Shown piece by piece: positions 11,886 through 32,939 of a DNA stretch of 32,939 nucleotides; positions within the stretch are counted from its first letter, which is position 1; every line of letters begins with the position of its first letter. Below the pieces are notes generated by a model. It ran no database searches. It was not told the DNA's origin and saw only the letters and a list, made by a program, of their open reading frames with translations. A program made the translations under genes and the position numbers. The stretch lies in sequence record SRR20825006_20. One strand, given 5' to 3'.

Positions 11886-12401
11886 ATGGCTGAAAAACTA
11901 CAACAACCCGAAGTTTGGCTAAGAGGTTCTCTTAAAGATCTGCCTGTACTACTACAGCCTGCAGCATTTGCTCTAATGCAAACCAATGAAGAATTACCGT
12001 TTTGGTTGAAAGATTTCCCAAAAGAAAAATTATGGGTCAAACCGGCAGGAAGAGCTTCCGTAGGATTTCACCTCAAGCATTTAAGCGGCGTCTTAGATAG
12101 AATGCTTACGTATGCCAAAGAAGAACCCTTATCTTCTGAACAATTTGCGTACCTCAAAGCAGAGGAAGCGATTAAAACTGATCTCTCTGTTGAACAACTA
12201 ATAGAGATTTTTACTGCAAAGGTTGAAGAAGCCCTTACTTATTTTAAAACATTAGAAGAGCACCAGCTAACGGAGCCTCGATCTGTAGGAAGAAAAAAAT
12301 TACCATCCACTTTAATTGGATTATTATTTCACGCTGCTGAACACAGTCAGCGCCATTTAGGTCAGCTTATCGCAACGGCAAGTTTTGTAAAAACGCTTTA
12401 A
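11886..12401 (+). CDS. DinB/YfiT-like metal-binding protein
   Basis: SVGFHLKHL and HAAEHSQRHLGQ histidine motifs of the DinB superfamily. Confidence 0.82.
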   Translation: MAEKLQQPEVWLRGSLKDLPVLLQPAAFALMQTNEELPFWLKDFPKEKLWVKPAGRASVGFHLKHLSGVLDRMLTYAKEEPLSSEQFAYLKAEEAIKTDLSVEQLIEIFTAKVEEALTYFKTLEEHQLTEPRSVGRKKLPSTLIGLLFHAAEHSQRHLGQLIATASFVKTL

Positions 12402-13051
12402 TTCCCATTAGAAACAATCTTATTTTTCAAAGCGTATAGCACAAGACCTATTCTACTGCGTACCTCAAGCTTTTTAAAAAGCGTGTCTCTGTAATTGTCG
12501 ATAGTTTTAGGACTTAGGCACATTTCGCTCGCAATTTCCTTATAGGTTTTATCAGAACAGGCAAGCTCCATAAACTCTAATTCTCTACTTGAAAAATTTT
12601 CGAGGAGTGTATCTTGTTCTTTCTTAGAAACACCTTTAAGTAAAGCAGTAGTTACATTATCAGTGTAGTAGTGACCGCGTTCTATCACTTGGTTGAGCGC
12701 AAGATTAAGTGTTTCTGGGTGAATATCTTTCAGCAAATAGCCTTTGCTTCCTGCTTTTAGCATTTTAATGATGGTTTCTTCATCATCATCCATAGAAAGC
12801 GTTATGGTTTTAATTTCCGGTTTGTGCTCATTTAGCCAAGAAATAGTCTCAAAACCATTCATTATAGGCATATTAATATCTAAGAGTAGAATATCAGGTT
12901 CTTTATCGCAGGTACTGAGTTTATTAATCAAGTCGTTACCATTACGTGCCATAAAAGCCACCTCAAAACCATTAAAACTATTGATGAGCCCTTGTAGGGA
13001 TTGTGCAAAAAGAACGTGATCATCAACGACTCCTACAACATGGTTTTTCAT
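12398..13051 (-). CDS. NarL/FixJ (LuxR-HTH) response regulator
   Basis: Receiver VVDDH, LLDINMP (phospho-Asp), LSM, GYLLK; C-terminal FSSRELEF...TYKEIASEMCLSPKTIDNYR..LFKKL HTH. Confidence 0.93.
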   Translation of the reverse strand: MKNHVVGVVDDHVLFAQSLQGLINSFNGFEVAFMARNGNDLINKLSTCDKEPDILLLDINMPIMNGFETISWLNEHKPEIKTITLSMDDDEETIIKMLKAGSKGYLLKDIHPETLNLALNQVIERGHYYTDNVTTALLKGVSKKEQDTLLENFSSRELEFMELACSDKTYKEIASEMCLSPKTIDNYRDTLFKKLEVRSRIGLVLYALKNKIVSNGN

Positions 13052-13110
13052 GGAAATAGTAAAATTTGTGGTTAGTTTTAAGTGCGTTAAAGGTAATTAT
13101 AATAAATAAA

Positions 13111-13899
13111 TTAAACCTTTATGTATTTGATTTTAAGACGTGTACCCTTGTTTTTAGTTGAATTAAGCTCAAACTCTGCTCTGATCATTTGTGCCCGAGT
13201 ATGCATATTTAGTAGCCCAGAACCCTGAGATGTTACACTTTGATCAAAGCCAATCCCATCATCTTGGGCTAAAATTTCTAAGAAATCATCCTTAAAGAGC
13301 ATCATAACCTCTAGAGAAGAGGCTTTCGCGTGTTTGATCACATTACTGAGAAATTCTTGCACGATCCTAAATAAAATGATGGTATCATCTTTAGGTATTG
13401 AAAATGGCGCTCCTTGAATAGTAAATGTTGTATTTAAAAATTTAAGTCGTTCTAGGCGGTTAAGTTCATTTTTTATACTCTCTTGAAGACCGATGTGTGT
13501 AATAATATCGTTGTTCAGGTTTTTAGATAAGGCCCTTATCTCACTTAAAGATTTGCCTAACAGTTTTGTAATTTCGATAAGCTCTGGTTCTTTTTCTAAA
13601 TGATTATTTGCGCCAAAGATCTTCAACTCCAAATTAGCTACAGAAATTAGCTGACCAATATTATCGTGCAATTCGCGACCCACATTCTTTAAGGTTTCTT
13701 CTTGAATTTCGACCTGAGTACGCGCAACTTCTTCTTGATATCTTAAAATAGCTTCATTGCGCTGATTGATGAACTTGATCTTGCGCTTTTGAAATACTGA
13801 AAAAAGAATAATGATAATCATCAAAAAGGCAAGAAGCACTAAAGAACATACTATAATAAGTAGTTCAAAAGAGCCTAAAATGTTATCATCAAAAGACAT
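13111..13899 (-). CDS. HisKA_3-type histidine kinase with a single TM helix and no sensory domain
   Basis: One N-terminal hydrophobic helix, H-box RELHDNIGQ, N-box FRIVQEFLSNVIKHA, DDGIGF and GSGLLNM G-boxes; 262 aa. Confidence 0.92.
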   Translation of the reverse strand: MSFDDNILGSFELLIIVCSLVLLAFLMIIIILFSVFQKRKIKFINQRNEAILRYQEEVARTQVEIQEETLKNVGRELHDNIGQLISVANLELKIFGANNHLEKEPELIEITKLLGKSLSEIRALSKNLNNDIITHIGLQESIKNELNRLERLKFLNTTFTIQGAPFSIPKDDTIILFRIVQEFLSNVIKHAKASSLEVMMLFKDDFLEILAQDDGIGFDQSVTSQGSGLLNMHTRAQMIRAEFELNSTKNKGTRLKIKYIKV

Positions 13900-13911
13900 A
13901 CAAGAAGCAAG

Positions 13912-14574
13912 TTAGCTTTTTTTTGCTATTGGATGCTCCATTTTATAGCGATCAGATTTTATAAACGCAATTGCGATGCAACAATATTGAATACAATTAA
14001 TGAGAAAGAGAACCACACTCAGAATAACCGGATTTTCTTGTAAAAAGAACATTAAAGTAATGTAAAAAGGCAAATAGGTCACACAATAGGTCAAAATACC
14101 AAAACTCACCCAGAAATATGGTGATTGCGTAATGTTAAGCACAACTTCTCGCGTGAGCATTTCGATAAAATAAAAAGCTACAGCAATTATGAGCAATAGT
14201 GTACCTAAAGAAAAGGTGATGGACAGGTAATTATCAGTTATAGAGCCTATTGTCAACGCTTCGCCAAACCAAAACACGATATACACTAAAAAGAAAAACT
14301 TAAGTATTTGCGCTTTTACGGTCGAAACAATTAGCGAATGAAACCAAGCTAAAAAAAAGGAAAAATGAATTAGAATATAGATATTATATAAAAAGGTATT
14401 GGGGATGTTCAATACTTCATATGAAATACCCGCTAAAAACTCATTGGCCACCACATAGATCAAAAAGTAAAAGACATATTTAAAGTAAAAATCTTTAAAT
14501 TCTTTATACTTTATAATACCTATGATCAGAGCAATAAGTTCTAAGTATTGAGAATACGAACTCAAATCTTCCAT
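13912..14574 (-). CDS. Hypothetical polytopic membrane protein (about 6-7 TM), candidate receptor subunit
   Basis: 220 aa, almost entirely hydrophobic/aromatic helices; 12-nt gaps to both neighbours imply co-transcription. Confidence 0.8.
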   Translation of the reverse strand: MEDLSSYSQYLELIALIIGIIKYKEFKDFYFKYVFYFLIYVVANEFLAGISYEVLNIPNTFLYNIYILIHFSFFLAWFHSLIVSTVKAQILKFFFLVYIVFWFGEALTIGSITDNYLSITFSLGTLLLIIAVAFYFIEMLTREVVLNITQSPYFWVSFGILTYCVTYLPFYITLMFFLQENPVILSVVLFLINCIQYCCIAIAFIKSDRYKMEHPIAKKS

Positions 14575-14586
14575 TAAACCTGTTTT

Positions 14587-15075
14587 CTATTGGTACGTGC
14601 CTGGAGGTGGTTTTCTTAAATGTCCCATATTTAATGGAGGGACTTCAAGATCCTCTTCTTCCTCTTGAAAATTAATACTAAAAACAGCCGCTTCATTAGA
14701 AGCTGCTTTATATCCGGTTGGGACAATAAATAAAGTTGAGTATCCGGAAACTTCAGCATTGTGGTAATCCTTAGGATAAGCTCCATAATACACGCGTAAG
14801 CCGTTTACATTATATCCTTTTTCCTTCGCTACACTTTTTGCATAAGCGATATAGGCTTCTAGATCATCTACAGACCACCAACTTGATCGACTATCAGGCA
14901 TACCAATAGCTTTGTTTATGGCATCCGCACGAGTTTCGGTAAATGTGCGATCTAAAATCTTTGCTTCTTCTATTGAAATAACTCCTTTAGGAGGTTTTGC
15001 AGTATTGTATTGTTCTGTACAACCTAAAAATAATACGGTTACAAAACCGCATATAAAAACTTTAAAACACCTCAT
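14587..15075 (-). CDS. Hypothetical lipoprotein, first gene of the signalling cassette
   Basis: ATG at 15075 gives MRCFKVFICGFVTVLFLGC (lipobox, Cys19); core SSWWSVDDL...GLRVYYGAYP...TLFIVPT; acidic linker then PLNMGHLRKPPPGTYQ tail. The GTG start at 15099 in the track is less likely. Confidence 0.75.
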   Translation of the reverse strand: MRCFKVFICGFVTVLFLGCTEQYNTAKPPKGVISIEEAKILDRTFTETRADAINKAIGMPDSRSSWWSVDDLEAYIAYAKSVAKEKGYNVNGLRVYYGAYPKDYHNAEVSGYSTLFIVPTGYKAASNEAAVFSINFQEEEEDLEVPPLNMGHLRKPPPGTYQ

Positions 15076-15147
15076 AATAGTATTGATTTTATGATTCACA
15101 GTCTAAAGTACTGCATTTGCTAACAAATAGATTATCAGCAAGTTAAA

Positions 15148-15166
15148 TAGGGGGAAATTCCCCGTA
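15148..15166. promoter_or_regulatory. GC-rich palindrome, candidate response-regulator binding site
   Basis: TA-G-GGGGAA-A-TTCCCC-G-TA: perfect 6-bp arms (15151-15163) extendable with one mismatch, in the AT-rich divergent intergenic region. Confidence 0.5.
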
Positions 15167-15229
15167 CAGTAAAGGGAATAAGCTGAATTAAAAAAGGGTC
15201 AATGACGCAATGGCTTTCGGGATTTTAAC

Positions 15230-15244
15230 TACTGAATATCAGTA
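15230..15244. promoter_or_regulatory. Second palindrome TACTGA-ATA-TCAGTA just upstream of the eCIS -7 box
   Basis: Perfect 6-bp inverted repeat ending 11 nt before the -7 box. Confidence 0.4.
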
Positions 15245-15255
15245 ATTTATATATT

Positions 15256-15263
15256 TAAATTTG
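15256..15263 (+). promoter_or_regulatory. -7 element (TAAATTTG) of the eCIS operon promoter
   Basis: Exact TAnnTTTG 29 nt upstream of the ATG at 15293. Confidence 0.6.
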
Positions 15264-15292
15264 AATAACAAAAAATCTAAACTCTCCAACCC

Positions 15293-15895
15293 ATGCTCTA
15301 TGAATCCCTCGAAATATTACGAGAGCAAGTCGAAATCTATTTAGAAGAAATGGATTTAGGCACTAATTTGGTGACTTTAGATTCCATTGCGCATTTTATT
15401 GATAAGCCCAATAGAGATAATCAACCTTTAGATAATAAAGTAGTTGTCTCGCTGCTGAATCTTCAAGAAGAGGTGACGCTCAAAAATCAACGCAACTATA
15501 CGGTTCAATCTGGCAAACCTGTATATAAAAATACTCCGGTATTTGTAAATGCCTACATTCTGTTTACCTGCAACCGTCTGGAGTATGCGTTTTCCTTACG
15601 GTCTCTTGCGGCAATACTTCAGTTTTTTCAAGGGAAAAATAGTTTCAATCATAAAAACACATTCTTTTCTAGAAATACGCAAGTAATGCAAGCCGTAAAA
15701 GAATTTCAATTTACGGTTGAGCTTTACACACCTTCCTTTGAAGAACTCAATTATATCTGGAGCATGCATGGCGGTAAGGCTTATCCTGCGGCTATCTACA
15801 AACTCAATATTTTGAGCTTAGAGCGTCAACATGTACTAGATGAAGGCGCTTTACTCACACAGGTTAATACCAATTTTAAACACCTAACATCGTGA
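15293..15895 (+). CDS. eCIS cap/tail terminator protein (DUF4255, Pvc16/Afp16-like)
   Basis: VVVSLLNLQEE..LKN, P.FVNAYILF, SL..L..ILQFFQ, ELYTPSFEELNYIWS..GGKAYP..IYK pattern; first gene of the cluster. Confidence 0.85.
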   Translation: MLYESLEILREQVEIYLEEMDLGTNLVTLDSIAHFIDKPNRDNQPLDNKVVVSLLNLQEEVTLKNQRNYTVQSGKPVYKNTPVFVNAYILFTCNRLEYAFSLRSLAAILQFFQGKNSFNHKNTFFSRNTQVMQAVKEFQFTVELYTPSFEELNYIWSMHGGKAYPAAIYKLNILSLERQHVLDEGALLTQVNTNFKHLTS

Positions 15896-16743
15896 GCACC
15901 ATTACCACATATCGGCCATTATTTCAACTGGATATTTTCCATAAGTTCTTTTTAGATGACGGAGTCACACCTTTTGACTCCAATGAAACAATTCTTAAAA
16001 AACAACTTCAAAAATATAACTGGAATTCCTTCGGGAAAATAGTTCCTACTGCTGAGACAAAAGTAAACCTACAGAATCACAGAATGTTGCTCAAACCAAG
16101 TCCTTTAGGCTTTGTGGTTTTGGTTGAAGCTGAACTTTTAAATGATACCGCTCCTAATCACACACCATTAATTGCTTTAGATCAAGACCTAAAGCTTGAT
16201 TTTTATATTCAGCTCTTAGACCCGCAATTTTATAATTACACAGACCTTGATCCAGCTTTTGACCGTCCGCTTTTCCTAAGTAATCATGCCACGCTTTACA
16301 ATGCTGCCGCACCCGTTTATTTAGCCAGACATAATGAAGAATCAAATGCTAAAAATCATTCGGTTTCCGAAGCTTTTAAAGACTTTCTCATTAAGAAATA
16401 TGGTGACATTCGAACCGAAAAACCTTTTATAATCTCCTTAAAAATGCGTGATGCGGGTTCGGGCTTAAATCTGGTTTTATTAAATGGAACGCTTCCACAG
16501 CATACACCGCATTTTAAAATTGTATTTCATAATCGAAAAACCATTTGGCGCTATTATTCAGTAGCGACAAAGGTTCTGATATACACTACAGAACCTGAAG
16601 AAAAACCTCTAGTACAGCATGGGATTGTCCCTATAAGCAATGCGGGTACTGACTACCCTACTCCTACTCCTTCTAGAATTTATCAAGACCGTGATACAGA
16701 CGGTTCGCTCATCAAAACATATTCTAACATTTATATTAATTAA
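15892..16743 (+). CDS. eCIS accessory protein, probable cap adaptor (Alg16B-like by position)
   Basis: GTGA overlap with the cap gene; lies between cap and sheath; YRPLF...HKFFLD and F.NRKTIWRYY...P.P.P motifs. Function inferred from gene order. Confidence 0.55.
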   Translation: MSTITTYRPLFQLDIFHKFFLDDGVTPFDSNETILKKQLQKYNWNSFGKIVPTAETKVNLQNHRMLLKPSPLGFVVLVEAELLNDTAPNHTPLIALDQDLKLDFYIQLLDPQFYNYTDLDPAFDRPLFLSNHATLYNAAAPVYLARHNEESNAKNHSVSEAFKDFLIKKYGDIRTEKPFIISLKMRDAGSGLNLVLLNGTLPQHTPHFKIVFHNRKTIWRYYSVATKVLIYTTEPEEKPLVQHGIVPISNAGTDYPTPTPSRIYQDRDTDGSLIKTYSNIYIN

Positions 16744-16755
16744 ACACTTTCTATT

Positions 16756-18714
16756 ATGGCATCATCGTATAAAACGCCCGGAGTATATGTAGAAGAAATA
16801 TCAGTATTTCCTCCTTCGGTAGCGCAGGTTGAGACCGCTATTCCCGCATTTATAGGGTATACTAATAAAGTTTCTCATAAAACTGAACAAGATTTGCTTT
16901 TGACACCTAAGAAAATAGGCTCTATGTTAGAGTTTGTTTCCCTTTATGGAGGTGCACCCGAAGCAAATATTAACGATATTCAGTTAACAGCATCAAAATC
17001 AGTTGCTTCATTTACTATAGAAGACACGTATTATTTATATGATGCGTTGAGACTTTTCTATGCAAATGGTGGCGGTGATTGCTATATCGTAAGTGTAGGT
17101 AAATGCGGTGAAGATAGTATCGCATTAACAGCTTTGGAAAATGGCTTAGCCAGAATCGCAAAGGTAGATGAACCTACTATTTTAGTTTCTCCCGATGCCT
17201 GTTTATTAGATCAAGATAAATTAGACTCCTTTAATCAAGCTTTACTGAAACAATGCGGGAAATTAGGCGATCGCTTTGCCCTATTAGGTATTAAAAATGA
17301 TAACGAAAATCTCGAGGTAGATATAAATGCTTTTAGAAATGGCGTGGGTATGAACAGCCTAAAATATGGAGCAGCCTACACGCCTTGGTTAAAAGCAAAT
17401 TTGCCGCGAACGGTGCATTATAAAAGCTTAAAAGGAAAAATAAGTTTAGGAGGCATATCGATTAACTTGGCCGACTTGATTCAAGATGCAGATGCCAAAA
17501 GTCTTGCTAATCAACTTGATGAACTCATAGATGACAGCGCACTCATAACAGATAAACTGAATGACCTTGCCGACTCTAGTTCCTCGGTTGATAATCAATA
17601 TCAAGAGTTGCTTACTACGGTCACAACAAGTTCATCTATTGGAAACCTTGTTAGTCTCCTTCAGTTCTATGCCGATGCAATTGATTTTATACGAGATATT
17701 GTTGAAGTGGGAACCGATAATTATAAATTGAAACACACTTCAGCAACGGCTCCTGACCAAGCCTTACAACCGCATTTAAATTTGGTATTTAATACAAGTT
17801 TGACTAGTGGCAGTATACATTCCATCACAGAGACGATTTCAGACATTCTTGCTGATTTTAATGCTGAATATGATCCTGACCGTACTGTAACTTCTACCAC
17901 AGGTGTAGATTATGGTAGTGGCGGCATCGGAACCTATTTCCAAGGAGGTGAAACACAAACTTTTTACATAGCAGAATTATTACCTACAGTGAGCGCTTTC
18001 TACACTGAAATTAAATCGGCATTAGACTATATCAGCAGCACTACGGCAAATTATTTAAGCACCTACGAAACCGCCGCAACCGAAATGATTCCGGCTCTAA
18101 AATCAATCAAAAATGCGATTGCAGGAGAATACATCGTACTACCACCTGGTGCAGCAATCGCAGGAGTTTATGCACGAACAGATGCTAACCGCGGTGTATG
18201 GAAAGCTCCAGCCAACACTTCTTTAAATAGTGTTGTGGGTGTGACACACCTTATAGATCACGACGATCAGCAAGGCTTGAATGTAGATACCGTTGCCGGA
18301 AAATCTATAAATGCTATTAGACCCTTTACCGGAAAAGGTATTATGGTTTGGGGTGCACGTACCCTTGCCGGTAATGATAATGAATGGCGTTATGTTCCTG
18401 TACGTCGCTTTTTCAATATGGTTGAAGAATCGGTTAAAAAAGCAACTGAACAGTTTGTTTTTGAAAGTAACGACGCAAACACTTGGGTTAAAGTACGCGC
18501 GATGATCGAAAACTTTTTAAATCTTCAATGGCGTGCCGGAGCTCTAGCCGGAGCAAAACCTAACGACGCTTTTTATGTTCGTGTAGGGCTTGGAGAAACG
18601 ATGACCGCCGAAGATATCTTAAATGGTATTATGGCGATCGAAATTGGTGTGGCAGTAGTACGACCTGCAGAATTCATCATCCTGAAATTCTCTCATAAAA
18701 TGCAGGAATCATAA
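16756..18714 (+). CDS. Contractile tail sheath protein
   Basis: YKTPGVYVEE, TAIPAFIGYT, FYANGGG.CYIVSVG, LPP..AIAGVYARTD..RGVWKAPAN, VWGARTL, WRYVPVRR, FVFESND, AVVRPAEFIILKF. Confidence 0.96.
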   Translation: MASSYKTPGVYVEEISVFPPSVAQVETAIPAFIGYTNKVSHKTEQDLLLTPKKIGSMLEFVSLYGGAPEANINDIQLTASKSVASFTIEDTYYLYDALRLFYANGGGDCYIVSVGKCGEDSIALTALENGLARIAKVDEPTILVSPDACLLDQDKLDSFNQALLKQCGKLGDRFALLGIKNDNENLEVDINAFRNGVGMNSLKYGAAYTPWLKANLPRTVHYKSLKGKISLGGISINLADLIQDADAKSLANQLDELIDDSALITDKLNDLADSSSSVDNQYQELLTTVTTSSSIGNLVSLLQFYADAIDFIRDIVEVGTDNYKLKHTSATAPDQALQPHLNLVFNTSLTSGSIHSITETISDILADFNAEYDPDRTVTSTTGVDYGSGGIGTYFQGGETQTFYIAELLPTVSAFYTEIKSALDYISSTTANYLSTYETAATEMIPALKSIKNAIAGEYIVLPPGAAIAGVYARTDANRGVWKAPANTSLNSVVGVTHLIDHDDQQGLNVDTVAGKSINAIRPFTGKGIMVWGARTLAGNDNEWRYVPVRRFFNMVEESVKKATEQFVFESNDANTWVKVRAMIENFLNLQWRAGALAGAKPNDAFYVRVGLGETMTAEDILNGIMAIEIGVAVVRPAEFIILKFSHKMQES

Positions 18715-18753
18715 AAAACAATCATCTAATCCTAGTAATTAAAAATCGTAAAA

Positions 18754-19191
18754 ATGGCAGCAATATATCCTTTAGCAAAATTTCATTTCCTCGTTGATTG
18801 GGGCGGAACAAATGTAGGTTTTACAGAAGTCTCCGGTCTTGATGTGGAAATTGAACCTATAGAATATAGACACGGAGCAAGCCCGGAATACAGCAAAACT
18901 AAAATGCCGGGAATGCAAAAATACAGCAACATCACGATGAAACGTGGTACCTTCTTGGCTGACAATGAATACTTCGCTTGGTGGAACAGTGTAAAACTCA
19001 ACACCATCGAACGGCGTGACATTACCATAAGTCTCCTAAATGAAGAGCACGCGCCTGTTGTTGTTTGGAAAGTCAAAAATGCATTTCCTATAAAAGTACA
19101 GTCAACAGATTTGAAATCTGACGCCAATGAAGTGGCTATAGAATCAATAGAGATTGTGCACGAAGGGCTTGAAATTCAAAACGGAGCATAA
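18754..19191 (+). CDS. Tail tube protein (T4 gp19-like, Afp1-like)
   Basis: YPLAKFHF.V, GFTEVSGL, IEYRHG, KMPG..KYSNITMKRG, RRDITISLLNE, VAIESIEIVHEG. Confidence 0.95.
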   Translation: MAAIYPLAKFHFLVDWGGTNVGFTEVSGLDVEIEPIEYRHGASPEYSKTKMPGMQKYSNITMKRGTFLADNEYFAWWNSVKLNTIERRDITISLLNEEHAPVVVWKVKNAFPIKVQSTDLKSDANEVAIESIEIVHEGLEIQNGA

Positions 19192-19625
19192 TGGCAGACT
19201 ACTATCCACCGGTTGGTTTTCACTTTAAAGTTGAATTTGGTGCGGTTTCTCCTGAAATCGATCATCAGTTTCAATCTGTGAGCGGACTTTCAGTAGATAT
19301 AGAAACGGAAGAGTATGCCGAAGGTGGAGAAAATAGGTTTAAGCACAAATTACCCGTTCGTACCAAGTTTCCTAATCTGGTCCTAAAACGCGGACTCGTA
19401 AGTGATTCGAAACTTATTAAATGGTGCAAAGACGCTGTAGAAAATTTTGATTTCAGTCCTACAGATGTAACGATCAAACTTTTGAATAATGAACACGAAC
19501 CTCTGGTGACCTGGAATGTAGTTCACGCGTATCCCGTAAAATGGTCAGTTTCAGATTTTAATGCAGAGCAGAACAGCATCGCTGTAGAAACCATAGAACT
19601 AGCGTATAACTATTTTAAATCTTGA
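19191..19625 (+). CDS. Second tail tube protein (Afp5-like)
   Basis: YYPPVGFHFKV, FQSVSGL, EGGENRF.HKLP, NLVLKRGL, AYPVKWSVSDFNA, VETIELAY; TAATG stop-start overlap with tube 1. Confidence 0.93.
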   Translation: MADYYPPVGFHFKVEFGAVSPEIDHQFQSVSGLSVDIETEEYAEGGENRFKHKLPVRTKFPNLVLKRGLVSDSKLIKWCKDAVENFDFSPTDVTIKLLNNEHEPLVTWNVVHAYPVKWSVSDFNAEQNSIAVETIELAYNYFKS

Positions 19626-19627
19626 TT

Positions 19628-19789
19628 ATGCCCATTGAAATTAAAGAATTGCATATCAAAATAAATGTTAGCGATAACGCCAACTCTACCGCTGCGACTT
19701 CGACAACCTCTTCTGCTAAAAAAGAAAAACTCATCGAAGCATGCATAGAACAAGTTATGCGTATTCAAGAACGAAAAAATGAACGATAA
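19628..19789 (+). CDS. Small eCIS protein, 53 aa (DUF5908 / Afp6-Alg6 plug-like); absent from the ORF track
   Basis: Read manually: MPIEIKELHIKINVSDNANSTAATSTTSSAKKEKLIEACIEQVMRIQERKNER*. Starts 2 nt after tube 2; its TAA abuts the next ATG at 19790. Confidence 0.85.
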   Translation: MPIEIKELHIKINVSDNANSTAATSTTSSAKKEKLIEACIEQVMRIQERKNER

Positions 19790-20485
19790 ATGGCCTTAGG
19801 AGAACTTTTTAAATTGAAGATCACCGCTTTTCGCGATATAAAATATAGCGAAAAAGTAGCTGATGGAGTTTTTACATCTCTGCTTAATCCAGAAAAATAC
19901 ACGCTGGCGTACAAAATTGAATACAATGATGATCAGGCTGCAGGGTCTAGTGGCAATGATCCCAGATTTGAAAAAATGCCACCAAAAGATCTTGATCTAG
20001 AATTTTTGTTTGATCGTACAGGCATAATTGCTCACAATCAAAATCAAGATAAAGACGCCGGAGTGGTCGATGATATTCAGCAATTTAAAGAAGTAGCATT
20101 TGAATATTCTGGGGATGAACATCGCCCTTATTATTTAGAAATCCGTTGGGGGAGTCTGCTTTTTAAAGGGATTTTAATTGAGATGAATATCGAATATAAA
20201 CTTTTTAATCCGCAAGGAACTCCGTTAAGAGCAGTCATCAAAGCCAAGTTTAAAGAAACAGTAGACCCTGAATTACGTTTGGCAGACGAAAACCGAAATT
20301 CACCAGATCTCACGCACATACGTATTGTAGAATCGGGAGATACGCTTCCGTTGATGGCCTTTCGCATTTATGGCGATTCCAAATACTATTTGCAAGTGGC
20401 TCAGGCAAACGGGATCACCAATTTTAGAACACTTAAACCCGGTCAGAAGATATTCTTCCCTCCTATTATAGAAAAAACCATTTGA
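19790..20485 (+). CDS. Tube initiator/hub protein with C-terminal LysM (Afp7-like)
   Basis: NPEKYT, FLFDRTG, WGSLLFKG, YKLFNPQGTPLRA, then SPDLTH.RIV.SGDTLPLMA..IYGD..YYLQVA.ANGI.NFR.LKPG LysM. Confidence 0.9.
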   Translation: MALGELFKLKITAFRDIKYSEKVADGVFTSLLNPEKYTLAYKIEYNDDQAAGSSGNDPRFEKMPPKDLDLEFLFDRTGIIAHNQNQDKDAGVVDDIQQFKEVAFEYSGDEHRPYYLEIRWGSLLFKGILIEMNIEYKLFNPQGTPLRAVIKAKFKETVDPELRLADENRNSPDLTHIRIVESGDTLPLMAFRIYGDSKYYLQVAQANGITNFRTLKPGQKIFFPPIIEKTI

Positions 20486-22961: not shown

Positions 22962-22963
22962 TT

Positions 22964-25900: not shown

Positions 25901-26047
25901 GTAGTTTTAATGCATCAGGCAACACCAAAAAATGAAATCGTCCCCTCTTCTCCAAAAGCTATATTAGTTTCTGCCAAAACACACACTATTGAGTTGGCAA
26001 AAAGCACGTGTAAGTCTAACGAAAATACTGTTCTAGTCTCATGTTAG
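22964..26047 (+). CDS. Baseplate J/gp6-like protein (Afp11-like)
   Basis: PHLALF..FL.L, HLDFYY..VL, PF.PFG..P, QPYSSFNGR..E...YYRRVSERLRHKDRA...WDYEHLVLQ.FP.VYKVKCLNH. Confidence 0.9.
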   Translation: MSTNCINPFLNALSGTSQEDRTAAAPYPASVQLNDLSWEDYMQLAYNFTKEVKYFGTRNPEQAIGDWQNFFISGDAKTLQNYLEQGEKEHTITPHLALFISFLRLLEHSKNRFNTITTRHLDFYYSEVLKIAKKPAQNDQVHLLFELAKNIESYALPEVTQAVAGKDEHNKPLLYATEHTTVINKAQLANIRSICKDPITKVLKATQKTNTLDGIDQELKEEKFWMPFGYPKIFKNRPELPNATLGFAVAATVLNMESGLRQVRISTFYKENKKLVSEELINLFEVFVTGEKGWIGPIRLQEKGSYPGFETSSESGIINFAFSLEASEKAIIGFDEAIHTGNFKNGIPVVKLQLPINSTESYNLAQSLSELTLDDIEIAVAVDGLTTLDLSNDIGNLSASKPFYPFGPRPFEKSRFKIKCSELTTKNWHQINLRLNWLNLPQSFSDHYLGYRSGTINSTRAFVESIYKIGSKTEVTELAKLPKTWNSDLDNLIVESNDHFTAQITIADENRLFTTSQPKDAHPLFSDDASQTDINIKSLSENGIQSGAHPIELTLNTSFYHTLYPKLYALALAAQDPEVIIPNEPYTPLLESLELSYYATQRLDLTSNKKAEETDQQLNFYQIHPYGVSMGNTVFPQYEEGGYLYLALENAQPGAQVSVLFQLQEGTENPLKESFAEQEKIEWSVLTASGWQALTDQEILREETDNFLKTGIITLALPESASTESLLMPKGFIWLQAHTSRAFDVVCRFINIHTQVVKAHLASSSIQHLKNGLPAESISKLNTRVASVKKVMQPYSSFNGRTKESQADYYRRVSERLRHKDRALNLWDYEHLVLQNFPEVYKVKCLNHTCKTKFKAAGQVTLVVIPNTINKPVFDLFEPRCSTAKLNEIQEFLIERTSYFITPQIINPQYEPVSVALKVKFHIGYDEHHYKNELQEAVKKWLSPWAYEEVSLLTFGVSINKSMLISHLEQLSYVDYLSDVVLMHQATPKNEIVPSSPKAILVSAKTHTIELAKSTCKSNENTVLVSC

Positions 26048-28743
26048 GTTTACAAGAACACATATCGCTATCAAAGAATACAAGCACTCAGGATGATCTT
26101 GATTTTGAATTTTTACGCAAAAGCGGAATTGCCTATATAGAATCTCTAAGTAGCAAATTATGGACAGACTATAACAGCCACGATCCCGGGATAACTATTC
26201 TCGAAGTATTGTGCTACGCACTTACCGATCTTGGTCAACGCATGAGCCTTCCTATTGAAACGCTTATCGCCAACAAACAAGAAGATAGCATTGATCAGTT
26301 TCATAAAGCTTCAGACATTTTAAGCTGTAAGCCGGTAACGCATTTAGATTACAGAAAACTTTTTATAGACGTTCCGGGAGTGCGAAATGCCTGGTTAATA
26401 AAGCATAACAAGAAACTTTATATCAATACAAAAGATGCCAAATTAAATTACCGAAGCTTTCTAAAAAATCCGTCTTATTCATATTTAAAGCCTCAAGATG
26501 AACATACAACGATACTGAATGGATTATATGATCTCATTGTTGATCTTGATGGTACCCGCTCTATAAATAGCCTGAGACCTGAACTAATGAAGCGCTACCA
26601 AGCCAACCGCAATTTATGTGAAGACCTTATTCATATCACGGAGGTTGGGGAACATCCCGTTAAAATTTGCGCCCAACTAGAACTGAAACCTGAAGCTGAT
26701 GAAAATCTCGTAAAAGCAACTGTATTACAAACGATTGATCATTACCTAACGCCTTCAATACGTCCCAAAACCTTAGCTCAATTGCTTGAATTAGGTCTAG
26801 AAACCCAAGAGATTTTTAACGGACCACTATTAGAAAATGGTTTTTTAGATAGCAATGAGGTAAAAGCAGCTCAATTAAGAACCGAAGTACGTCAAAGCGA
26901 TCTAGTCGCAATACTTACAAAAATAGATGGAATTAAATATGTTAAGGCCATAAGTTTAGGCGCTTGTTCTGACCAAACACCTCCTCCTGATAATTGGGTT
27001 ATTTGTATTGAAAACGGTAAAAAACCGGTGCTATGCGATAAAAGTTCGTGGAGCTTTTTTAAAGGTTTTATACCGCTTGTACCTGATGAAAATAAAGTAA
27101 AAGCATATCAAACCGCATTTGAAGAACAGGAACTCCTTGTGAGTACCCAAATCAAAAGTGCTTCTCAAGAGTTAGACATACTAAAAGAAAGTTTTACCAA
27201 CCTTGCCGAAACCAGCAGTATTCAAAATGATCTTCCAGAGGTTTATGGTGTAGGCCCTTACGGACTCAAAAGCAATGCTTCTGAAGCTGATGAGGTAAAG
27301 GCTAAGCAACTAAAGGCCTATCTATTATTCTTCGATCAGCTTTTGGCTAATTATTTTAAACACCTTAGTACCGTAGGTGATTTACTTTCGGTTGCTGGTG
27401 ATAAATCTCAAAACTTTTTTGCTCAACCTCTTACAGATATAAAAGGTCTTGAGGAACTTTTAAGGGAACCTCAAAATTATAACGATGAGCAAAAATTAAG
27501 CGAACTATTCTATTCAGATTATACTGCTAGAAACAGTGAAAAGCGCCACGAAATAATTGACCATTTGTTGTCTCGATTTGCAGAAGATTTTGGTAACTAC
27601 GCTTTTCTAATGCAAAAGATCTATGGAGATCTTGCAAATGATGCGGTTTTAGATACCAAAGAACGTTTGTTAAAGCAATATGCTGAAAGTAGTTATGCGC
27701 GAGGAGCAGCTTTTAACTGGTATCAGCAACCGGAAGCTCAACTTTGGGAAACTGATAATATTTCGGCTTTACAAAAACGGCTCTATCTTCTATTAGGAAT
27801 TACTGACATCAACCGCAGAAATCTTTCTGAAGATTACGTTGAAATTTATGAGGAAAAAGACGCTGATAACAAACTAGAATATCGCTGGCGAATAAAAGAC
27901 GGTTCAAAGACCATTCTGTCTTCTGCAACCAAGAATTACGCGAGTCTTGAAGCATTGCACCAAGAGTTAATACTGGTAAAACGCTATGCTACCGATACTT
28001 CTAATTACAAGTTCAGAAAAATCAAAAAAAAGAATCCTGAAGATCAGGTTAAATGGTATTTCGTTCTTGTGAATCCAACGATCACCAATACAAAAAGCGA
28101 AGATTATATTATCGCCTGGCGTATTGCTCAATTTAACAGTAGAGCAAATGCTCGTAAAGCAAGTAGAGCTGTGCTCAATCTAGTCAAATCCTTTGCAGGA
28201 AATGAAGGAATGTATCTTATTGAACACATACTTCTTCGACCTGATGTTACTAAAAATACAGCACCAGAACATACGTTTCTACCCATTTGTAAAGAACAGA
28301 TTGAAGAAGCATGTGAACCGTTAGACCCCTATAGCTTTAGAGTGAGCATTGTACTTCCGGGTTGGACAGAACGCTTTGGCAATGTAGACTTTAGACGCTA
28401 TGTTGAAGATTTGATCTGCAGAGAACTGCCGTCACATATTCTTCCAAAAATATGCTGGATTGGGTATCCAAAAAATTATACCGAATCTAACGGCAATCCA
28501 CCTAAAGAAAATGAAATGGTTTTACTTGAAGCTGCGTATAAAAACTGGCTGCTTTCTAAGACCAACGCCGGTCAAAAACAAGATGAAACCGCTCTTATTT
28601 CCCTAAATAAAGTGCTAAGCAGTTTGCACACCATTTACCATCAAGGCAGGCTTTACAGCTGTACCCCTTCTCCATCAAATACCAATGAGCAAAAAACTAA
28701 TCAAAAAGTCATTTTGGGGCGTACTCATCTTGGCAAACTTTAA
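26041..28743 (+). CDS. Second baseplate protein (Afp12-like) with an internal YegP/DUF1508-like region
   Basis: WTDYNSHDPGITILEVLCYALTDL, YRKLFID.PGVRNAW, RNLCED, QLKAYLLFFDQLLANY, EGMYLIEHILLRP, DPYSFRVSIVLPGW..RF, ELPSHI...ICW. Confidence 0.88.
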   Translation: MLGLQEHISLSKNTSTQDDLDFEFLRKSGIAYIESLSSKLWTDYNSHDPGITILEVLCYALTDLGQRMSLPIETLIANKQEDSIDQFHKASDILSCKPVTHLDYRKLFIDVPGVRNAWLIKHNKKLYINTKDAKLNYRSFLKNPSYSYLKPQDEHTTILNGLYDLIVDLDGTRSINSLRPELMKRYQANRNLCEDLIHITEVGEHPVKICAQLELKPEADENLVKATVLQTIDHYLTPSIRPKTLAQLLELGLETQEIFNGPLLENGFLDSNEVKAAQLRTEVRQSDLVAILTKIDGIKYVKAISLGACSDQTPPPDNWVICIENGKKPVLCDKSSWSFFKGFIPLVPDENKVKAYQTAFEEQELLVSTQIKSASQELDILKESFTNLAETSSIQNDLPEVYGVGPYGLKSNASEADEVKAKQLKAYLLFFDQLLANYFKHLSTVGDLLSVAGDKSQNFFAQPLTDIKGLEELLREPQNYNDEQKLSELFYSDYTARNSEKRHEIIDHLLSRFAEDFGNYAFLMQKIYGDLANDAVLDTKERLLKQYAESSYARGAAFNWYQQPEAQLWETDNISALQKRLYLLLGITDINRRNLSEDYVEIYEEKDADNKLEYRWRIKDGSKTILSSATKNYASLEALHQELILVKRYATDTSNYKFRKIKKKNPEDQVKWYFVLVNPTITNTKSEDYIIAWRIAQFNSRANARKASRAVLNLVKSFAGNEGMYLIEHILLRPDVTKNTAPEHTFLPICKEQIEEACEPLDPYSFRVSIVLPGWTERFGNVDFRRYVEDLICRELPSHILPKICWIGYPKNYTESNGNPPKENEMVLLEAAYKNWLLSKTNAGQKQDETALISLNKVLSSLHTIYHQGRLYSCTPSPSNTNEQKTNQKVILGRTHLGKL

Positions 28744-28754
28744 AATATACGGCT

Positions 28755-31700
28755 ATGCGACCAATACTTCACCAGATAACGCCAGACTATAGAGCATTTG
28801 TAGATGACCAAGTATTAACCTCTGGTCAGCTAAATGAGTTTTTAGACTATTTTGAAGATCAGCAGCGTCTGACGCGTATTTGCCTCAACGGTGTGGGGAT
28901 CGTTTGTGGATTTGAAGTCAGTTTGAATGCGGCTACAAAAACTATTGCGATCACTCCCGGGTGTGGCATTACCACAGATGGTGATCTTATTAAATTACTT
29001 GTGGACGCAAAGAAAACCCCAACCGATGATGAAAGCACGCAGAACCTTACCTATAAGACTTTAGCCAAAGAGGCTATTCACTACACTCACTTTAGAAGTT
29101 TTGAGGATGATTTAGCGCAATATGAATCTTTTAGAACAACCTCTTCAAATAGTGATACTAATACGACCATTTCTTTATACGAACTTGTCTCAAAAGGGAG
29201 CTCAAAAACTACAGATAAAGCTTTAACGACATTAGATCTTACTGATAAAATTGTGGTGCTCTATCTAGAATCTTATGCAAAAACTCCAGATATATGTACC
29301 GAAACTAATTGCGATAATCTTGGGGAGCAACACGTACAAAAACTAAAGGTTTTATTAGTCGAAGAAAAGGACATCGACTATTTGCTGGCAAATGATAGTA
29401 TTTATCGCAAATATGACATCCTTGACGTTTATAAGAAGCTTCCGCCTATTAAGATGCCTCGCGTGTTGTTAAATAGCGGCGTCAAAGAGATTGAAACACC
29501 CTTGAAAGTTGACTTAAGCGATCTTTTTGATCTTACCAATATTAGAAAGAACCTGATAATTTCTAATAACACACTTTCACCTCTCAAAAACAGTTTCTCT
29601 TCAGTAAAAACTCCTGTACTTGATATAGGATATAACTCTTTAAGAGCACCAAATACGTCTATTAAGAACTTTACCCCTATTCTTAATTCAAATACAAAAA
29701 CTACCGTCAATACTAAAACCTATTCAGCATTGGTTAGCTCCTATGCAGAAAAAATAAACACGGTAGTACCTCAGTTACAATCCGCACTGAAAACGATCTC
29801 AGACAACTTTAGTCAGCTTTTGAGCTTGAATATTTCAGAAGATTTAGAACAAAGTATTAAAGCACTTGAAAATCATTTGGAACAAAATAATGGGGATATA
29901 CAATACCTCTACGATCACCTCTGTGATCTCGTAAAAATCTATAATGAATTAAGAGACCTGCTTCTTGATATTCAAAGTGATTGTTGCCCAAGTATAGACG
30001 CGTTCCCAAAACATTTGATTCTGGGGAGACCAAATGATACATCTCGCAGCATACCGTACCGACATCGCTTCTACACTTCAACCACAGAAATAACAGGAAA
30101 GCTTCCTCTTAAAAAAGCGCACTTTTTAGTGCGTAAAATGCTATTGCTTTTAAAAGCATTCAATCCGGAAACACAGCTAGGTGCAGACATCACACCATCT
30201 ACGAGCATCAGTGCAGAAAACGCAGCTTGTGCAATTCCATTTTATTATAATCCATCAGAAGATTTGGTATTACAGTGGAATTTTAAACTCACGCAACGTT
30301 TTAACGAAGCCTTTCAGTTAAGCTATTTCAAGAAATACTTATCGCCCATTAATGCCATTCAGGAACCACTTAAGTATGACTTGAGCAACTATGATTTTCT
30401 AAGGATTGAAGGAATTCACGGTATGCCTTATGATGAAGCTTTAAAAGAAGTATCAAAGCTGAAAACCGATTACGGTCTTAATTTTGACATTAAAGCGATC
30501 AATATTGATCAACAAATTGAAGATATTGATATGGACGCTTATGCATGTCATTTTAATTATCTCAATACTGATCTTAAAGCTTGGCGTCAGGAACAAAATT
30601 GTATCAATAAAGATATTACGGAGTTCTTTAGCGGATTTAATATGGATGATCTGGGCAGTCATAATTATGCTTTTGAACAATTTGACCGTGATGATTTATT
30701 AGATAAAGAGGTACTTATAGATCCGAATAAGATCAAAAAACCAACAGATTTTTTATTCTCAAATAATCAGTTATCCATTTTAGGAAAGCTCAATATCAAC
30801 GCCGATTCGTTAGCTGAACGGGATAAGAGCGATCGTGAACCTTTAATCGCATTATTAGATAAAGCACAAAACAGTATCGCCGAAGGAGCTTCTATTGAAG
30901 AAGTATTGAAAGAATATCAAACTTCGTTTCTGGTTTTAGGTGAGAAACTTGAAGTTTTAAATACTTCTCAACCTAAATTGTATACAAAATCATTTTCTAT
31001 TAGCAAGAATGAGCCTGAGGTTGTAAAATCTATACTTCTTGACGCTCAGAAAGAAACTGAAACTTCTCCAGGAATCTTACTCAATACCGGGATTAAAGCT
31101 TACACCCCGTTCTTTCAGGAAACCAAAGTAAACACCACGGTAACAAATAATTTAAAAACTGAAGCAACAGATCTCGGTTTTATACTAAATAGTGTTTTAG
31201 ACAAAGGGTTTGTAGGCAGTGCTACCGAAATAGAAAAGGCTATAGATATCAAACGAAAAGAGCTATATCCTAAAATAGATCCTGAGCAACAAAACTTATT
31301 GAAAGTAGGTTTTACAATTCCTAACGGAATTCTCGCCAGATTACAAATTGTAAGTTCATATATCCCGGAAAGTTTAGACCAAGTAAACGCGGACACAAAA
31401 GAAAAATACGCCGCTGCGATGGAAGATTTATGTGTGTATACTAAAAAATCAAGAGCCATCATCAATGAAATTTTTTACAACCCAAAAGCTGAATACACCC
31501 ACATTGGTTATGAGACGCTATATACATTTATGTTAGACCGGCTCGAAGCAAATTGCTGCGCCGCATCTTCTTTAGAAATTATTCTGAGTGAAATTCAGAC
31601 CAAAAAAGAAGAAATTCTTGACGAACTTATTTTCTCAAACTTTGCTAGAAAACATCCGGGTCTTGAGCATAAAGCCGGCGTTCCAATCGGTGGGACCTTT

Positions 31701-32939
31701 GTGATGGTTTACACGGGAGCGGTAAGCAATGAATCAGATAAAGAAATACCTCGAAATACAGTAGTTGCCGATTTTGCTCTGCCTTACCTCTGCTGTTCAG
31801 ATTGTTCTCCTATTGGCTTTATAATTCAGGAAGCAGCGACCAGCAGCAGCCTAATCCTAGACCAGAATAAAGTATGCATAGACACCAATGCTGAAACTGA
31901 AATAAAGATTGGTTTTACTAAAAGTCCTACAGATGGTGTTTTAGCACTACTCAATCAAAATATTGAAGGGATTAGCTTTTCTGAAACGGAGCTTATCATT
32001 ACTCCGTACCAGCTTAATGCCTTTGATACGCCTATTAAATTTACAGTAAATGGTCAGTTGACCACAGCGAATCTAACAGCAACTAAAAAGGCGGAAGCTC
32101 GCATAACTACAAATCCGGAGCGCGTGAGTGGCCTACCGGGAAGCACGCTTCCCCCGGTGCAATTTTCCATAGAAAACCTGAATAATTTTAATACTGATCT
32201 GTTTAGTTTCAATTGGACAATTAACGGTACTTCTTATACTAACGAACGCCCAACGGTGAATCTGCCTATTCCGCAGAATATTGATAGTAACATTCTTGAA
32301 ATACCGGTTACTCTGACATTGTCTAACGATTTGTGCGATTCAACTTCTATTGAATATCCCTTAGAAGTTGCTGTAGACACTCCCGAAGAAGTACAGGTAA
32401 TTCTTAAGGACGGACCATTTTGTTCTAACGACCAAGAAAAATATCCTTTTACTATTACACCAGAAGGAAGCGAGATCAAACTTTTAAATGATGATGTGAA
32501 GGGAATTTACGGTGAGGGTGATTCTTGGTATTTTATTCCTGCTGAAGCAGGTCCTGGAAAGCACAACATAACTTTTGCTGAAGTTGATCCCATAACTATT
32601 GAAGTGTCTAAGGCTCCCGAAACGGTACGTTTTGAAGCTGAGTTACATAACAAAGTAATGGTATTACAAATCACTGAGGACATTCAGGCGGAAGCATTCA
32701 GTTGGTTTAATGACGCCAAACTCATTGCAACTACGGTAGAACCTGTTTTAGAAATTCCGCAAGAGGAAAAAGAACAATTATTCAAAATACAAGTAGTTGT
32801 CAAAACTTCAGCTTGTGGCTCTCTTGAGTCTGAATATGAAGAAGTTATAATTCCGGCGTTGGAAACAGACAGCCCGGATCCTGATCCTACTCCAGACCCT
32901 ACACCTGAACCTGATCCAGAAACTGATCCAGAAACTGAT
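28755..32939 (+). CDS. Very large eCIS protein (>1395 aa, partial), probable tail fibre (Afp13/Alg19-like); absent from the ORF track
   Basis: ATG at 28755, 11 nt after the baseplate gene: MRPILHQITPDYRAFVDDQVLTSGQLNEFLDYFEDQQRLTRICLNGVGIVCGF. The same frame gives FARKHPGLEHKAGVPIGGTFVMVY and VADFALPYLCCSDC near 31640-31810 and is still open at the window end. The frame was spot-checked, and the track shows no stop-terminated ORF in it. Confidence 0.85.
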   Translation, partial: MRPILHQITPDYRAFVDDQVLTSGQLNEFLDYFEDQQRLTRICLNGVGIVCGFEVSLNAATKTIAITPGCGITTDGDLIKLLVDAKKTPTDDESTQNLTYKTLAKEAIHYTHFRSFEDDLAQYESFRTTSSNSDTNTTISLYELVSKGSSKTTDKALTTLDLTDKIVVLYLESYAKTPDICTETNCDNLGEQHVQKLKVLLVEEKDIDYLLANDSIYRKYDILDVYKKLPPIKMPRVLLNSGVKEIETPLKVDLSDLFDLTNIRKNLIISNNTLSPLKNSFSSVKTPVLDIGYNSLRAPNTSIKNFTPILNSNTKTTVNTKTYSALVSSYAEKINTVVPQLQSALKTISDNFSQLLSLNISEDLEQSIKALENHLEQNNGDIQYLYDHLCDLVKIYNELRDLLLDIQSDCCPSIDAFPKHLILGRPNDTSRSIPYRHRFYTSTTEITGKLPLKKAHFLVRKMLLLLKAFNPETQLGADITPSTSISAENAACAIPFYYNPSEDLVLQWNFKLTQRFNEAFQLSYFKKYLSPINAIQEPLKYDLSNYDFLRIEGIHGMPYDEALKEVSKLKTDYGLNFDIKAINIDQQIEDIDMDAYACHFNYLNTDLKAWRQEQNCINKDITEFFSGFNMDDLGSHNYAFEQFDRDDLLDKEVLIDPNKIKKPTDFLFSNNQLSILGKLNINADSLAERDKSDREPLIALLDKAQNSIAEGASIEEVLKEYQTSFLVLGEKLEVLNTSQPKLYTKSFSISKNEPEVVKSILLDAQKETETSPGILLNTGIKAYTPFFQETKVNTTVTNNLKTEATDLGFILNSVLDKGFVGSATEIEKAIDIKRKELYPKIDPEQQNLLKVGFTIPNGILARLQIVSSYIPESLDQVNADTKEKYAAAMEDLCVYTKKSRAIINEIFYNPKAEYTHIGYETLYTFMLDRLEANCCAASSLEIILSEIQTKKEEILDELIFSNFARKHPGLEHKAGVPIGGTFVMVYTGAVSNESDKEIPRNTVVADFALPYLCCSDCSPIGFIIQEAATSSSLILDQNKVCIDTNAETEIKIGFTKSPTDGVLALLNQNIEGISFSETELIITPYQLNAFDTPIKFTVNGQLTTANLTATKKAEARITTNPERVSGLPGSTLPPVQFSIENLNNFNTDLFSFNWTINGTSYTNERPTVNLPIPQNIDSNILEIPVTLTLSNDLCDSTSIEYPLEVAVDTPEEVQVILKDGPFCSNDQEKYPFTITPEGSEIKLLNDDVKGIYGEGDSWYFIPAEAGPGKHNITFAEVDPITIEVSKAPETVRFEAELHNKVMVLQITEDIQAEAFSWFNDAKLIATTVEPVLEIPQEEKEQLFKIQVVVKTSACGSLESEYEEVIIPALETDSPDPDPTPDPTPEPDPETDPETD
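32874..32939 (+). repeat. Coding low-complexity tandem repeat (PDPDPTPDPTPEPDPETDPETD)
   Basis: Degenerate 12-nt period; exact CTGATCCAGAAA x2 plus a partial copy at 32911-32939. Confidence 0.85.

Follow-up and report, generated by a model that had tools for sequence, protein, structure and literature searches.

A palindromic candidate operator shared by a four-gene signaling cassette and a divergent contractile injection system operon in Flavobacteriaceae

Introduction

The stretch of DNA analyzed here (32,939 nucleotides of sequence record SRR20825006_20, hereafter the window) carries an operon for an extracellular contractile injection system (eCIS) and, back to back with it, a cassette of four genes coding for a small lipoprotein-like protein, a 7-helix membrane protein, a histidine kinase and a NarL/FixJ-type response regulator. 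Comparison of this locus with its counterparts in other Flavobacteriaceae leads us to regard it as on balance probable that the regulator binds a palindromic operator through which it governs its own operon as well as the eCIS. This reading draws on the head-to-head linkage of the two gene sets, which recurs across genera, and on a palindrome whose scoring matrix was trained solely on sites upstream of cassettes unlinked to any eCIS and which is found again upstream of eCIS operons, including many that have no visible cassette beside them.

The window stems from a marine Leeuwenhoekiella. The record closest to it is that of Leeuwenhoekiella palythoae DSM 19859 (98% identity over Pvc16, the first gene of the eCIS operon), and the cassette proteins of the nearest genome compared (G001) are 98–100% identical to those of the window. 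The cassette occupies the minus strand (12398–15099) and the eCIS operon the plus strand from 15293 onward, leaving an intergenic gap of 193 bp (15100–15292), or of 217 bp if the lipoprotein begins at its ninth codon (15075), which is probably its true start. A preliminary description of this DNA had placed the two gene sets head to head across about 200 bp, with two palindromes and a −7 box between them; open reading frames (ORFs) and Pfam matches confirm the layout, and all three elements were located, at 15151–15163 (core of the first palindrome), 15230–15244 and 15256–15263 (TAnnTTTG). The features of the cassette and of the intergenic region are as follows.

12398–13051, minus strand: NarL/FixJ-type response regulator, 217 aa, with a receiver (REC) domain and a GerE helix-turn-helix (Pfam: Response_reg 2.4e-23, GerE 1.1e-13)
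13111–13899, minus strand: histidine kinase, 262 aa, HisKA_3 and HATPase_c (Pfam)
13912–14574, minus strand: 7-helix membrane protein, 220 aa, no Pfam family (AlphaFold2 model)
14587–15099, minus strand: small protein, 170 aa, with a signal peptide and a lipobox-like LFLGC (translation)
15103–15110, minus strand: candidate −7 box of the cassette, reading TACTTTAG on that strand, one mismatch to TAnnTTTG
15147–15166 (core 15151–15163), no strand: operator-like palindrome RGG-N-WWWW-N-CCY (position weight matrix and conservation)
15173–15229, no strand: weaker partial sites at about 15173–15184, 15190–15199 and 15215–15229, with partly conserved AGG and CAGG-TTTTA blocks
15230–15244, no strand: second palindrome, present in the window sequence
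15256–15263, plus strand: TAnnTTTG box, candidate −7 element of the eCIS operon, 30 bp before the Pvc16 start codon

Recurrent Linkage of the Cassette to eCIS Operons

Linkage was surveyed in a family sample of 201 Flavobacteriaceae genomes, one per genus, in which the CIS_tube profile (PF19266) identified 27 eCIS loci in 25 genomes; two of these loci (L041 and L048) end before Pvc16, and L034, which is near-identical to the window, was excluded from the independent counts. The cassette stands divergent from and directly upstream of Pvc16 in nine of the 25 evaluable loci, representing nine genera. All nine belong to an eCIS subtype whose marker is a 283-aa gene kept between Pvc16 and the sheath gene, and three loci of the same subtype (L035, L040, and L050) have no adjacent cassette. 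An alignment scan with Pvc16 across the species genomes of the GTDB returned 457 relatives, the best 80 of which were kept (seven were already in the first sample); among these 80 loci, many of them from congeners or close relatives (Flavobacterium, Aquimarina), the full cassette is adjacent in 28 and a partial one, on truncated contigs, in two, while two are unjudgeable and 48 have none.

A tree built on the kinase and the regulator confines the eCIS-adjacent cassettes to a single clade, designated clade A (10 of its 17 rows), with a support of 100 in the Shimodaira–Hasegawa-like approximate likelihood ratio test (SH-aLRT). The same clade holds them in an enlarged tree (15 of 25 rows; SH-aLRT 99), and the other clade, clade B, has no eCIS-adjacent row among its 27 rows in the first tree or its 29 in the second. 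The survey of synteny across the family that the preliminary description had proposed has a twofold outcome: adjacency of cassette and eCIS recurs in nine genera, and one genome of the window's own genus (G198) has the cassette at the same locus with no eCIS found.

Other NarL-type regulators were seen near eCIS genes. On a short contig of G103, a different regulator of this type (L035, 7200–7877; 35% identical) lies about 1.4 kb upstream of an eCIS of the same subtype and is co-directional with it, a 275-aa gene of no assigned function standing between the two. In a Seonamhaeicola metagenome-assembled genome (MAG), an orphan NarL-type regulator with no adjoining kinase (L115, 5892–6536; 45% identical) is divergent to the eCIS, and a palindrome site lies 219 bp upstream of Pvc16.

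A Palindrome Common to Cassettes and Unlinked eCIS Operons

Each intergenic region between an eCIS and a cassette contains one to five RGG-N-WWWW-N-CCY palindromes, often in tandem at 22–24 bp. The motif also stands 58–190 bp upstream of the first gene of cassettes unlinked to eCISs, in both clades, as the strict pattern in 27 of 43 cases; at a matrix score of at least 9 bits it is found upstream of 36 of 44 cassettes, part of those sites having served to train the matrix. The operator matrix was trained solely on 25 sites upstream of cassettes unlinked to an eCIS, and with it 20 sites of at least 10 bits were found in the nine independent eCIS-cassette intergenic regions, against a background of 0.054 such sites per kb of non-ORF DNA and 0.043 per kb of ORFs. 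Two of these regions, those of L036 and L046, are long. In each of them one site lies 285–325 bp from the cassette, outside the distance range of unlinked cassettes, and 84 or 124 bp from the start codon of Pvc16; a second site lies 146–181 bp from the cassette. Since strict TAnnTTTG boxes between motif and cassette start are few, the spacing between motif and promoter cannot be generalized.

The same matrix was applied to 50 eCIS loci beside which no cassette is visible. Of these, 36 have a site scoring 10 bits or more within 600 bp upstream of Pvc16, compared with 1.45% of 2000 random 600-bp windows drawn from the same loci. These 36 eCIS operons have unrelated upstream neighbors and no cassette within 4.5 kb, and the distance from site to Pvc16 is typical of the genus (mostly 151–179 bp in Flavobacterium, 243–267 bp in Aquimarina). 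A gene for a cassette-type 7-helix protein (profile E < 1e-30) is encoded in 35 of the 36 genomes with a site, and in fragments in the 36th; in the genomes without a site it was found in four of 14, three of which have a palindrome that is near the threshold or differently spaced. The two Flavobacterium cassettes examined are complete, bear the motif and belong to clade A. On one contig, labeled as a Limnohabitans (betaproteobacterial) MAG (L114), an eCIS of the Flavobacteriaceae type is preceded by two palindrome sites; the label probably reflects a binning error.

The Intergenic Region of the Window

The palindrome at 15147–15166 has the highest matrix score in the whole 32.9 kb (20.7 bits; runner-up 15.2), and its position is conserved in 10 of 10 aligned intergenic regions of the Leeuwenhoekiella type. 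The blocks conserved in this alignment comprise the palindrome, both −7-like boxes and the partial sites: the TACTTTAG block is nearly invariant, and the ATTTG core of the TAnnTTTG box is retained. TAnnTTTG is the −7 consensus of Bacteroidota promoters, and with this consensus the conserved boxes would place transcription starts at about 15096 on the minus strand and about 15270 on the plus strand. The partial sites are spaced about 20–25 bp apart toward the eCIS promoter, and the equivalent space in other genera is taken up by two to five full sites at 22–24 bp. The second palindrome (15230–15244) is not conserved: its sequence has changed even in the 98%-identical relative, and the remaining aligned regions do not have it.

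Counted within the window, neither pattern exceeds chance. Four matches to the palindrome pattern were found where 1.7 are expected (8 of 100 shuffles reach four), and the box pattern has 31 matches where 42 are expected; it is from the comparison across genomes that both elements take their weight. Another palindrome match, at 8966, lies upstream of an 839-aa outer-membrane-type gene and was considered as a second target; it is kept only in the 98%-identical relative and was rejected as a chance occurrence. A further match, at 3096, falls within an ORF.

Between 12000 and 20500 of the window, portions of the cassette and of the sheath and tube genes are matched at 90–99% identity by marine and aquatic metatranscriptome contigs, which derive from four runs in four studies. 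Contigs from two of the studies end at 15097 and 15080, near the predicted start of the cassette transcript, which is a weak hint at most. Such contigs convey neither level, strand nor start and may stem from DNA carry-over, and the absence of cover over 15124–15407 is given no evidential weight.

Proposed Circuit and Alternative Explanations

According to the reading favored here, a cue would act through the 7-helix protein, and perhaps also through the small protein, on the kinase, which would phosphorylate the regulator at Asp58. Dimers of the regulator would bind the RGG-N-WWWW-N-CCY array in the shared intergenic region, in which the predicted transcription starts of the cassette and of the eCIS lie about 61 bp and about 113 bp, respectively, from the strong site (15151–15163), and the weaker sites would extend the array to about 47 bp from the eCIS start. 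Both divergent promoters would thereby be controlled, the cassette regulating itself and the eCIS being switched, more likely on than off. The binding of the regulator to the motif, the sign of the regulation, the two transcription starts and the partnership of the kinase with the 7-helix protein are elements of this scheme that we infer.

Gene order beyond the intergenic region bears on how the linkage should be understood. The clade-A cassette stands directly after Nramp-pxpA-pxpB-pxpC in five genomes, and in four of these (three and G198) an aldehyde dehydrogenase gene lies on its other side, with no eCIS there. Rows displaying the Nramp-pxpABC neighborhood (pxpABC being the 5-oxoprolinase genes) come from several genera and include L058 (1–10400), L059, L063, L097, L098, and L179 (8354–11915). 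In three eCIS-linked genomes pxpC adjoins the eCIS at the end away from the cassette, and the eCIS thus has the character of an indel separating pxpC from the cassette. Two other genomes have pxpABC just beyond the regulator gene; in the nearest relative of the window, pxpC is 220 kb away; and in Aquimarina the order is eCIS, Nramp-pxpABC and cassette, all co-directional, the cassette being 34–47 kb from Pvc16. Judging from these gene orders, the synteny is partly inherited, yet the association between eCIS and cassette outlasts several rearrangements.

Several observations weigh against a regulatory link of the kind proposed. The conserved order of pxpABC, cassette and aldehyde dehydrogenase gene means that synteny at this locus is sticky for no obvious functional reason, and because the 80 loci of the wider scan include many close relatives, counts taken from them overstate the number of independent events; in the one-per-genus sample, a site was found at just two of the 16 unlinked eCIS loci. 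The motif is also present before cassettes that have no eCIS, so that in short intergenic regions the site could be the operator of the cassette alone. G201 has an eCIS of the same subtype and a clade-A cassette elsewhere, yet no upstream site of at least 10 bits, and the eCISs of L040 and L035 likewise have no upstream site. No CIS_tube gene was found in six of the 17 clade-A cassette genomes of the family sample; these six include G198 (100% complete), in which an orthologous cassette, the palindrome and the same flank are present and no eCIS tube gene was found. As to the mechanism itself, a distance of about 113 bp between the strong site and the predicted eCIS start is far for a simple activator, and a protein other than the regulator may be the binder of the palindrome.

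The regulator of G198 is 83% identical to that of the window, and its cassette is nested on the tree among eCIS-linked Leeuwenhoekiella cassettes, which suggests that this genome has lost an eCIS and retained the cassette. Cassettes without eCISs and eCISs without sites together imply that the cassette has a role or targets beyond the eCIS and that some eCISs of this subtype are outside its control. The preliminary description had proposed a dedicated sensing circuit, responding possibly to cell density, contact or a host cue, that switches on eCIS production. Its central idea, the coupling of cassette and eCIS, is backed at the level of comparison by the recurrent head-to-head linkage (nine genera; 28 full and two partial cassettes among the best 80 loci) and by the shared palindrome; the circuit is not a dedicated one, given that six sampled genomes, G198 among them, have a clade-A cassette and that a search for eCIS tube genes found none in these six.

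Could the two gene sets be neighbors by descent and nothing more? The cassette would then be a housekeeping sensor of the envelope or of nutrients that regulates itself through the palindrome, beside which an eCIS was inserted or lost with no regulatory link. The persistence of cassette and palindrome in those six genomes, including the same-locus congener, agrees with this explanation, as do the pxpABC-cassette order, which is kept whether or not an eCIS lies between or next to these genes, and the placement of the motif at a typical cassette distance in short intergenic regions; what makes it unlikely in our view are three observations, namely the palindrome upstream of unlinked eCISs at 36 of 50 loci, the tracking of this eCIS-upstream site with the presence of a cassette in the genome, and the separate eCIS-proximal site of L036 and L046, which lies farther from the cassette than any in the unlinked range.

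A second explanation, to which we likewise assign a low probability, retains a common control of cassette and eCIS through the palindrome and attributes it to a different, unlinked transcription factor, the regulator of the cassette acting elsewhere. Autoregulation through a palindrome is usual for dimers of the NarL/GerE type, the regulator is the sole DNA-binding protein of the module, which the motif accompanies in 36 of 44 cassettes, and loss of the cassette coincides with loss of the eCIS site, all of which count against an outside factor; for it speak the single consensus of the two cassette clades, whose regulators are just about 50% identical, and a Polaribacter MAG with an eCIS-upstream site in which the only cassette found is of clade B. 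Finally, it is improbable that the regulator is a repressor whose array blocks both promoters until a signal displaces or rearranges it, since the strong site is centered about 61 bp upstream of the predicted cassette start, a typical activator position, even if arrays of two to five sites fill most of the short regions, to about 65–80 bp from the start codon of Pvc16, and release of the eCIS is presumed lethal to the producer, according to the text of a recent review (PMC12961389), which would make tight silencing plausible.

Direct control by the cassette regulator through the palindrome is thus the explanation that we retain. A more far-reaching version of it, possible and somewhat short of an even chance, is that the module acts as the master switch of eCIS production across the Flavobacteriaceae by way of this operator, both where it is adjacent (Leeuwenhoekiella, Aequorivita, and others) and where it is distant (Flavobacterium, Aquimarina), and that the 7-helix protein together with the small protein of novel fold constitutes a new split sensor for the cue that sets off particle production.

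The Cassette Proteins and the Family-Wide Module

Read from its translation, the regulator has the acceptor Asp58, Asp10/11 and Lys108, and its top NCBIfam matches are NarL, UvrY and MctR-like models, every one under its equivalog cut-off. The kinase has a single N-terminal membrane helix (hydrophobic at about residues 11–35) and no sizeable sensor domain; none of 43 homologues deviates at H78, N186 or D213/G215/G217. The pair thus has the attributes of a NarL/FixJ two-component system: the histidine of HisKA_3 and the N and G boxes in the kinase, the receiver aspartate and a C-terminal GerE domain in the regulator. Phosphotransfer from kinase to regulator is suggested by the adjacency of their genes, a pairing kept in 44 loci.

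Neither Pfam nor NCBIfam has a family for the 7-helix protein or the small protein. The AlphaFold2 model of the former (mean predicted local distance difference test, pLDDT, 90.5; predicted template modeling score, pTM, 0.87) consists of seven long helices, and the top matches of a fold search against the PDB are all seven-transmembrane (7TM) receptor bundles, none of them significant (E 0.064–0.7). The 7TMR-DISM_7TM family is matched weakly by four of 43 homologues (best E 0.0014) and not by the protein of the window itself, and a neighbor in the Atlas bears the name “histidine kinase N-terminal 7TM region.” The 7-helix protein is accordingly named here as a candidate sensor partner of the kinase; a complex prediction with kinase residues 1–135 scored 0.01, a value that speaks neither for nor against binding.

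In the small protein, an alignment of 40 homologues delineates a conserved helix-helix-hairpin core and a C-terminal N-x-G-x-x-G-x-P-P tail. Its AlphaFold2 model has a pLDDT of 86.8, and the fold search against the PDB gave no match at E ≤ 0.001 (best E 0.51). Most members, the window copy included, have a signal peptide with a Cys; a signal-peptide-like N-terminus is missing in eight of the 40 aligned homologues, six of which are eCIS-adjacent (four short forms and two with non-signal extensions). The signal-less proteins (L031, L032, L033, L037, L039, L043, L070, L097, and L098) start at a KP-x-KCI(S/T) core, and the domain would then occupy different sides of the membrane in different genomes.

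Homologues of the 7-helix protein occur in 50 genomes of the family sample and those of the small protein in 111, and the order (small protein)-7-helix-kinase-regulator is found in 33 of 40 loci around 7-helix homologues away from any eCIS. The cassette is one copy of a four-gene module distributed throughout the Flavobacteriaceae. Its variants include three 7-helix paralogues in tandem before a single kinase-regulator pair (L070, 3977–6104) and two small-protein/7-helix pairs before a single kinase-regulator pair (L098, 3962–6437). At L066, L067, L068, L075, L082, L087, L088, and L184, 7-helix homologues occur with neither a HisKA_3 kinase nor a NarL regulator, just a short, weak regulator-like match lying about 1 kb away, which may mean another signaling partner.

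The eCIS Operon

By Pfam, the operon encodes the components of an Afp/PVC-like eCIS: a contractile sheath, an inner tube, a gp25/Baseplate_J baseplate, a VgrG-like spike and a PAAR tip. Pvc16_N and CIS_tube both lie within the window, and the operon continues past the window end, where genes such as those for an AAA+ ATPase and effectors may follow. Its features are as follows.

15293–32939, plus strand: eCIS operon, incomplete at the window end (ORFs and Pfam)
15293–15895, plus strand: Pvc16_N cap-type gene (Pfam, 3.7e-26)
15892–16743, plus strand: 283-aa gene, no Pfam or NCBIfam family (ORF list)
16756–18714, plus strand: sheath (Pfam)
18754–19191 and 19191–19625, plus strand: two gp19-type tube genes (Pfam)
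19790–20485, plus strand: CIS_tube, Afp5-like (Pfam, 2.2e-54)
20498–22231, plus strand: VgrG-like spike (Pfam)
22236–22535, plus strand: PAAR (Pfam)
22548–22961, plus strand: gp25 (Pfam)
22964–26047, plus strand: Baseplate_J (Pfam)
26041–28743, plus strand: 900-aa ORF (ORF list)
28755–32939, plus strand: ORF of more than 1395 aa that runs off the window end (ORF list)

Relation to Known Systems and Significance

Regulators beside eCIS genes are not in themselves new. According to the main text of a survey in Nature Communications (Geller et al., 2021; PMC8213781), GerE/LuxR regulators adjoin 25.8% of eCIS loci and a histidine kinase lies upstream in 9% of those, on which grounds a two-component system was proposed, its signals not being identified; the text of a 2026 review (PMC12961389) restates the association of regulator and kinase and calls the signals unidentified. 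The preliminary description, which was aware of no such regulator for eCISs of the Bacteroidota, had thus overlooked that GerE regulators and kinases next to eCISs are already on record (PMC8213781). The arrangement defined in that survey is the one found in the window, where the gene for the GerE regulator adjoins the eCIS and is itself immediately preceded by a histidine kinase gene. The survey's main text differs in containing no Flavobacteriaceae example, no 7-helix or lipoprotein genes, no operator and no distant control, although its Supplementary Figure 16 and Supplementary Data 10 may show loci of this kind.

In Streptomyces, the LuxR-type regulator SCO4263/SlpR, encoded like the regulator of the window beside an eCIS-like cluster, is reported to be needed for the production of phage-tail-like particles (PMC8505568). 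It differs in that the text of that report describes neither a receiver domain nor a kinase partner and invokes control through a rare TTA codon and bldA, and in belonging to another phylum and another eCIS lineage.

Among characterized two-component systems, the cassette resembles NarXL, UhpAB and LiaFSR in the families of its kinase and regulator, its intact catalytic residues, its palindromic or arrayed sites and its presumably autoregulated operon. In LiaFSR, as here, the kinase itself has almost no sensor domain, and its gene is accompanied by genes for accessory membrane proteins. The cassette departs from these systems in that its NCBIfam matches are far under the equivalog cut-offs, its accessory proteins are of no known family and its predicted target is an eCIS; searches of Pfam and NCBIfam found no LiaF-type domain in either accessory protein, and the kinase scores 72 bits against the LiaS model, whose cut-off is 450. 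Kinases of the 7TMR-DISM and 7TM-region types likewise tie a seven-helix membrane module to a histidine kinase, whereas the module of the cassette is a separate polypeptide, has no extracellular DISM domain and is of marginal sequence similarity to them. Literature searches on contractile injection and Flavobacteriaceae regulators, which did not extend to supplements, returned no paper describing the cassette or the operator. The novelty lies in the accessory proteins, in the operator and in the indications that control extends in trans; the basic association of regulator and kinase is already in print.

On the trigger of eCIS production, the texts of the 2021 survey and the 2026 review go no further than neighboring GerE-type regulators, in some cases with kinases, that answer to signals yet to be identified (PMC8213781; PMC12961389). 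The locus described here provides a concrete candidate circuit for an eCIS of the Bacteroidota, with a named regulator, a mutable 20-bp operator and a candidate membrane sensor, and relatives that include Flavobacterium species have the same operator before their eCISs. If the proposed circuit holds true, eCIS production could be made inducible on demand, and there would be a handle with which to seek the natural cue.

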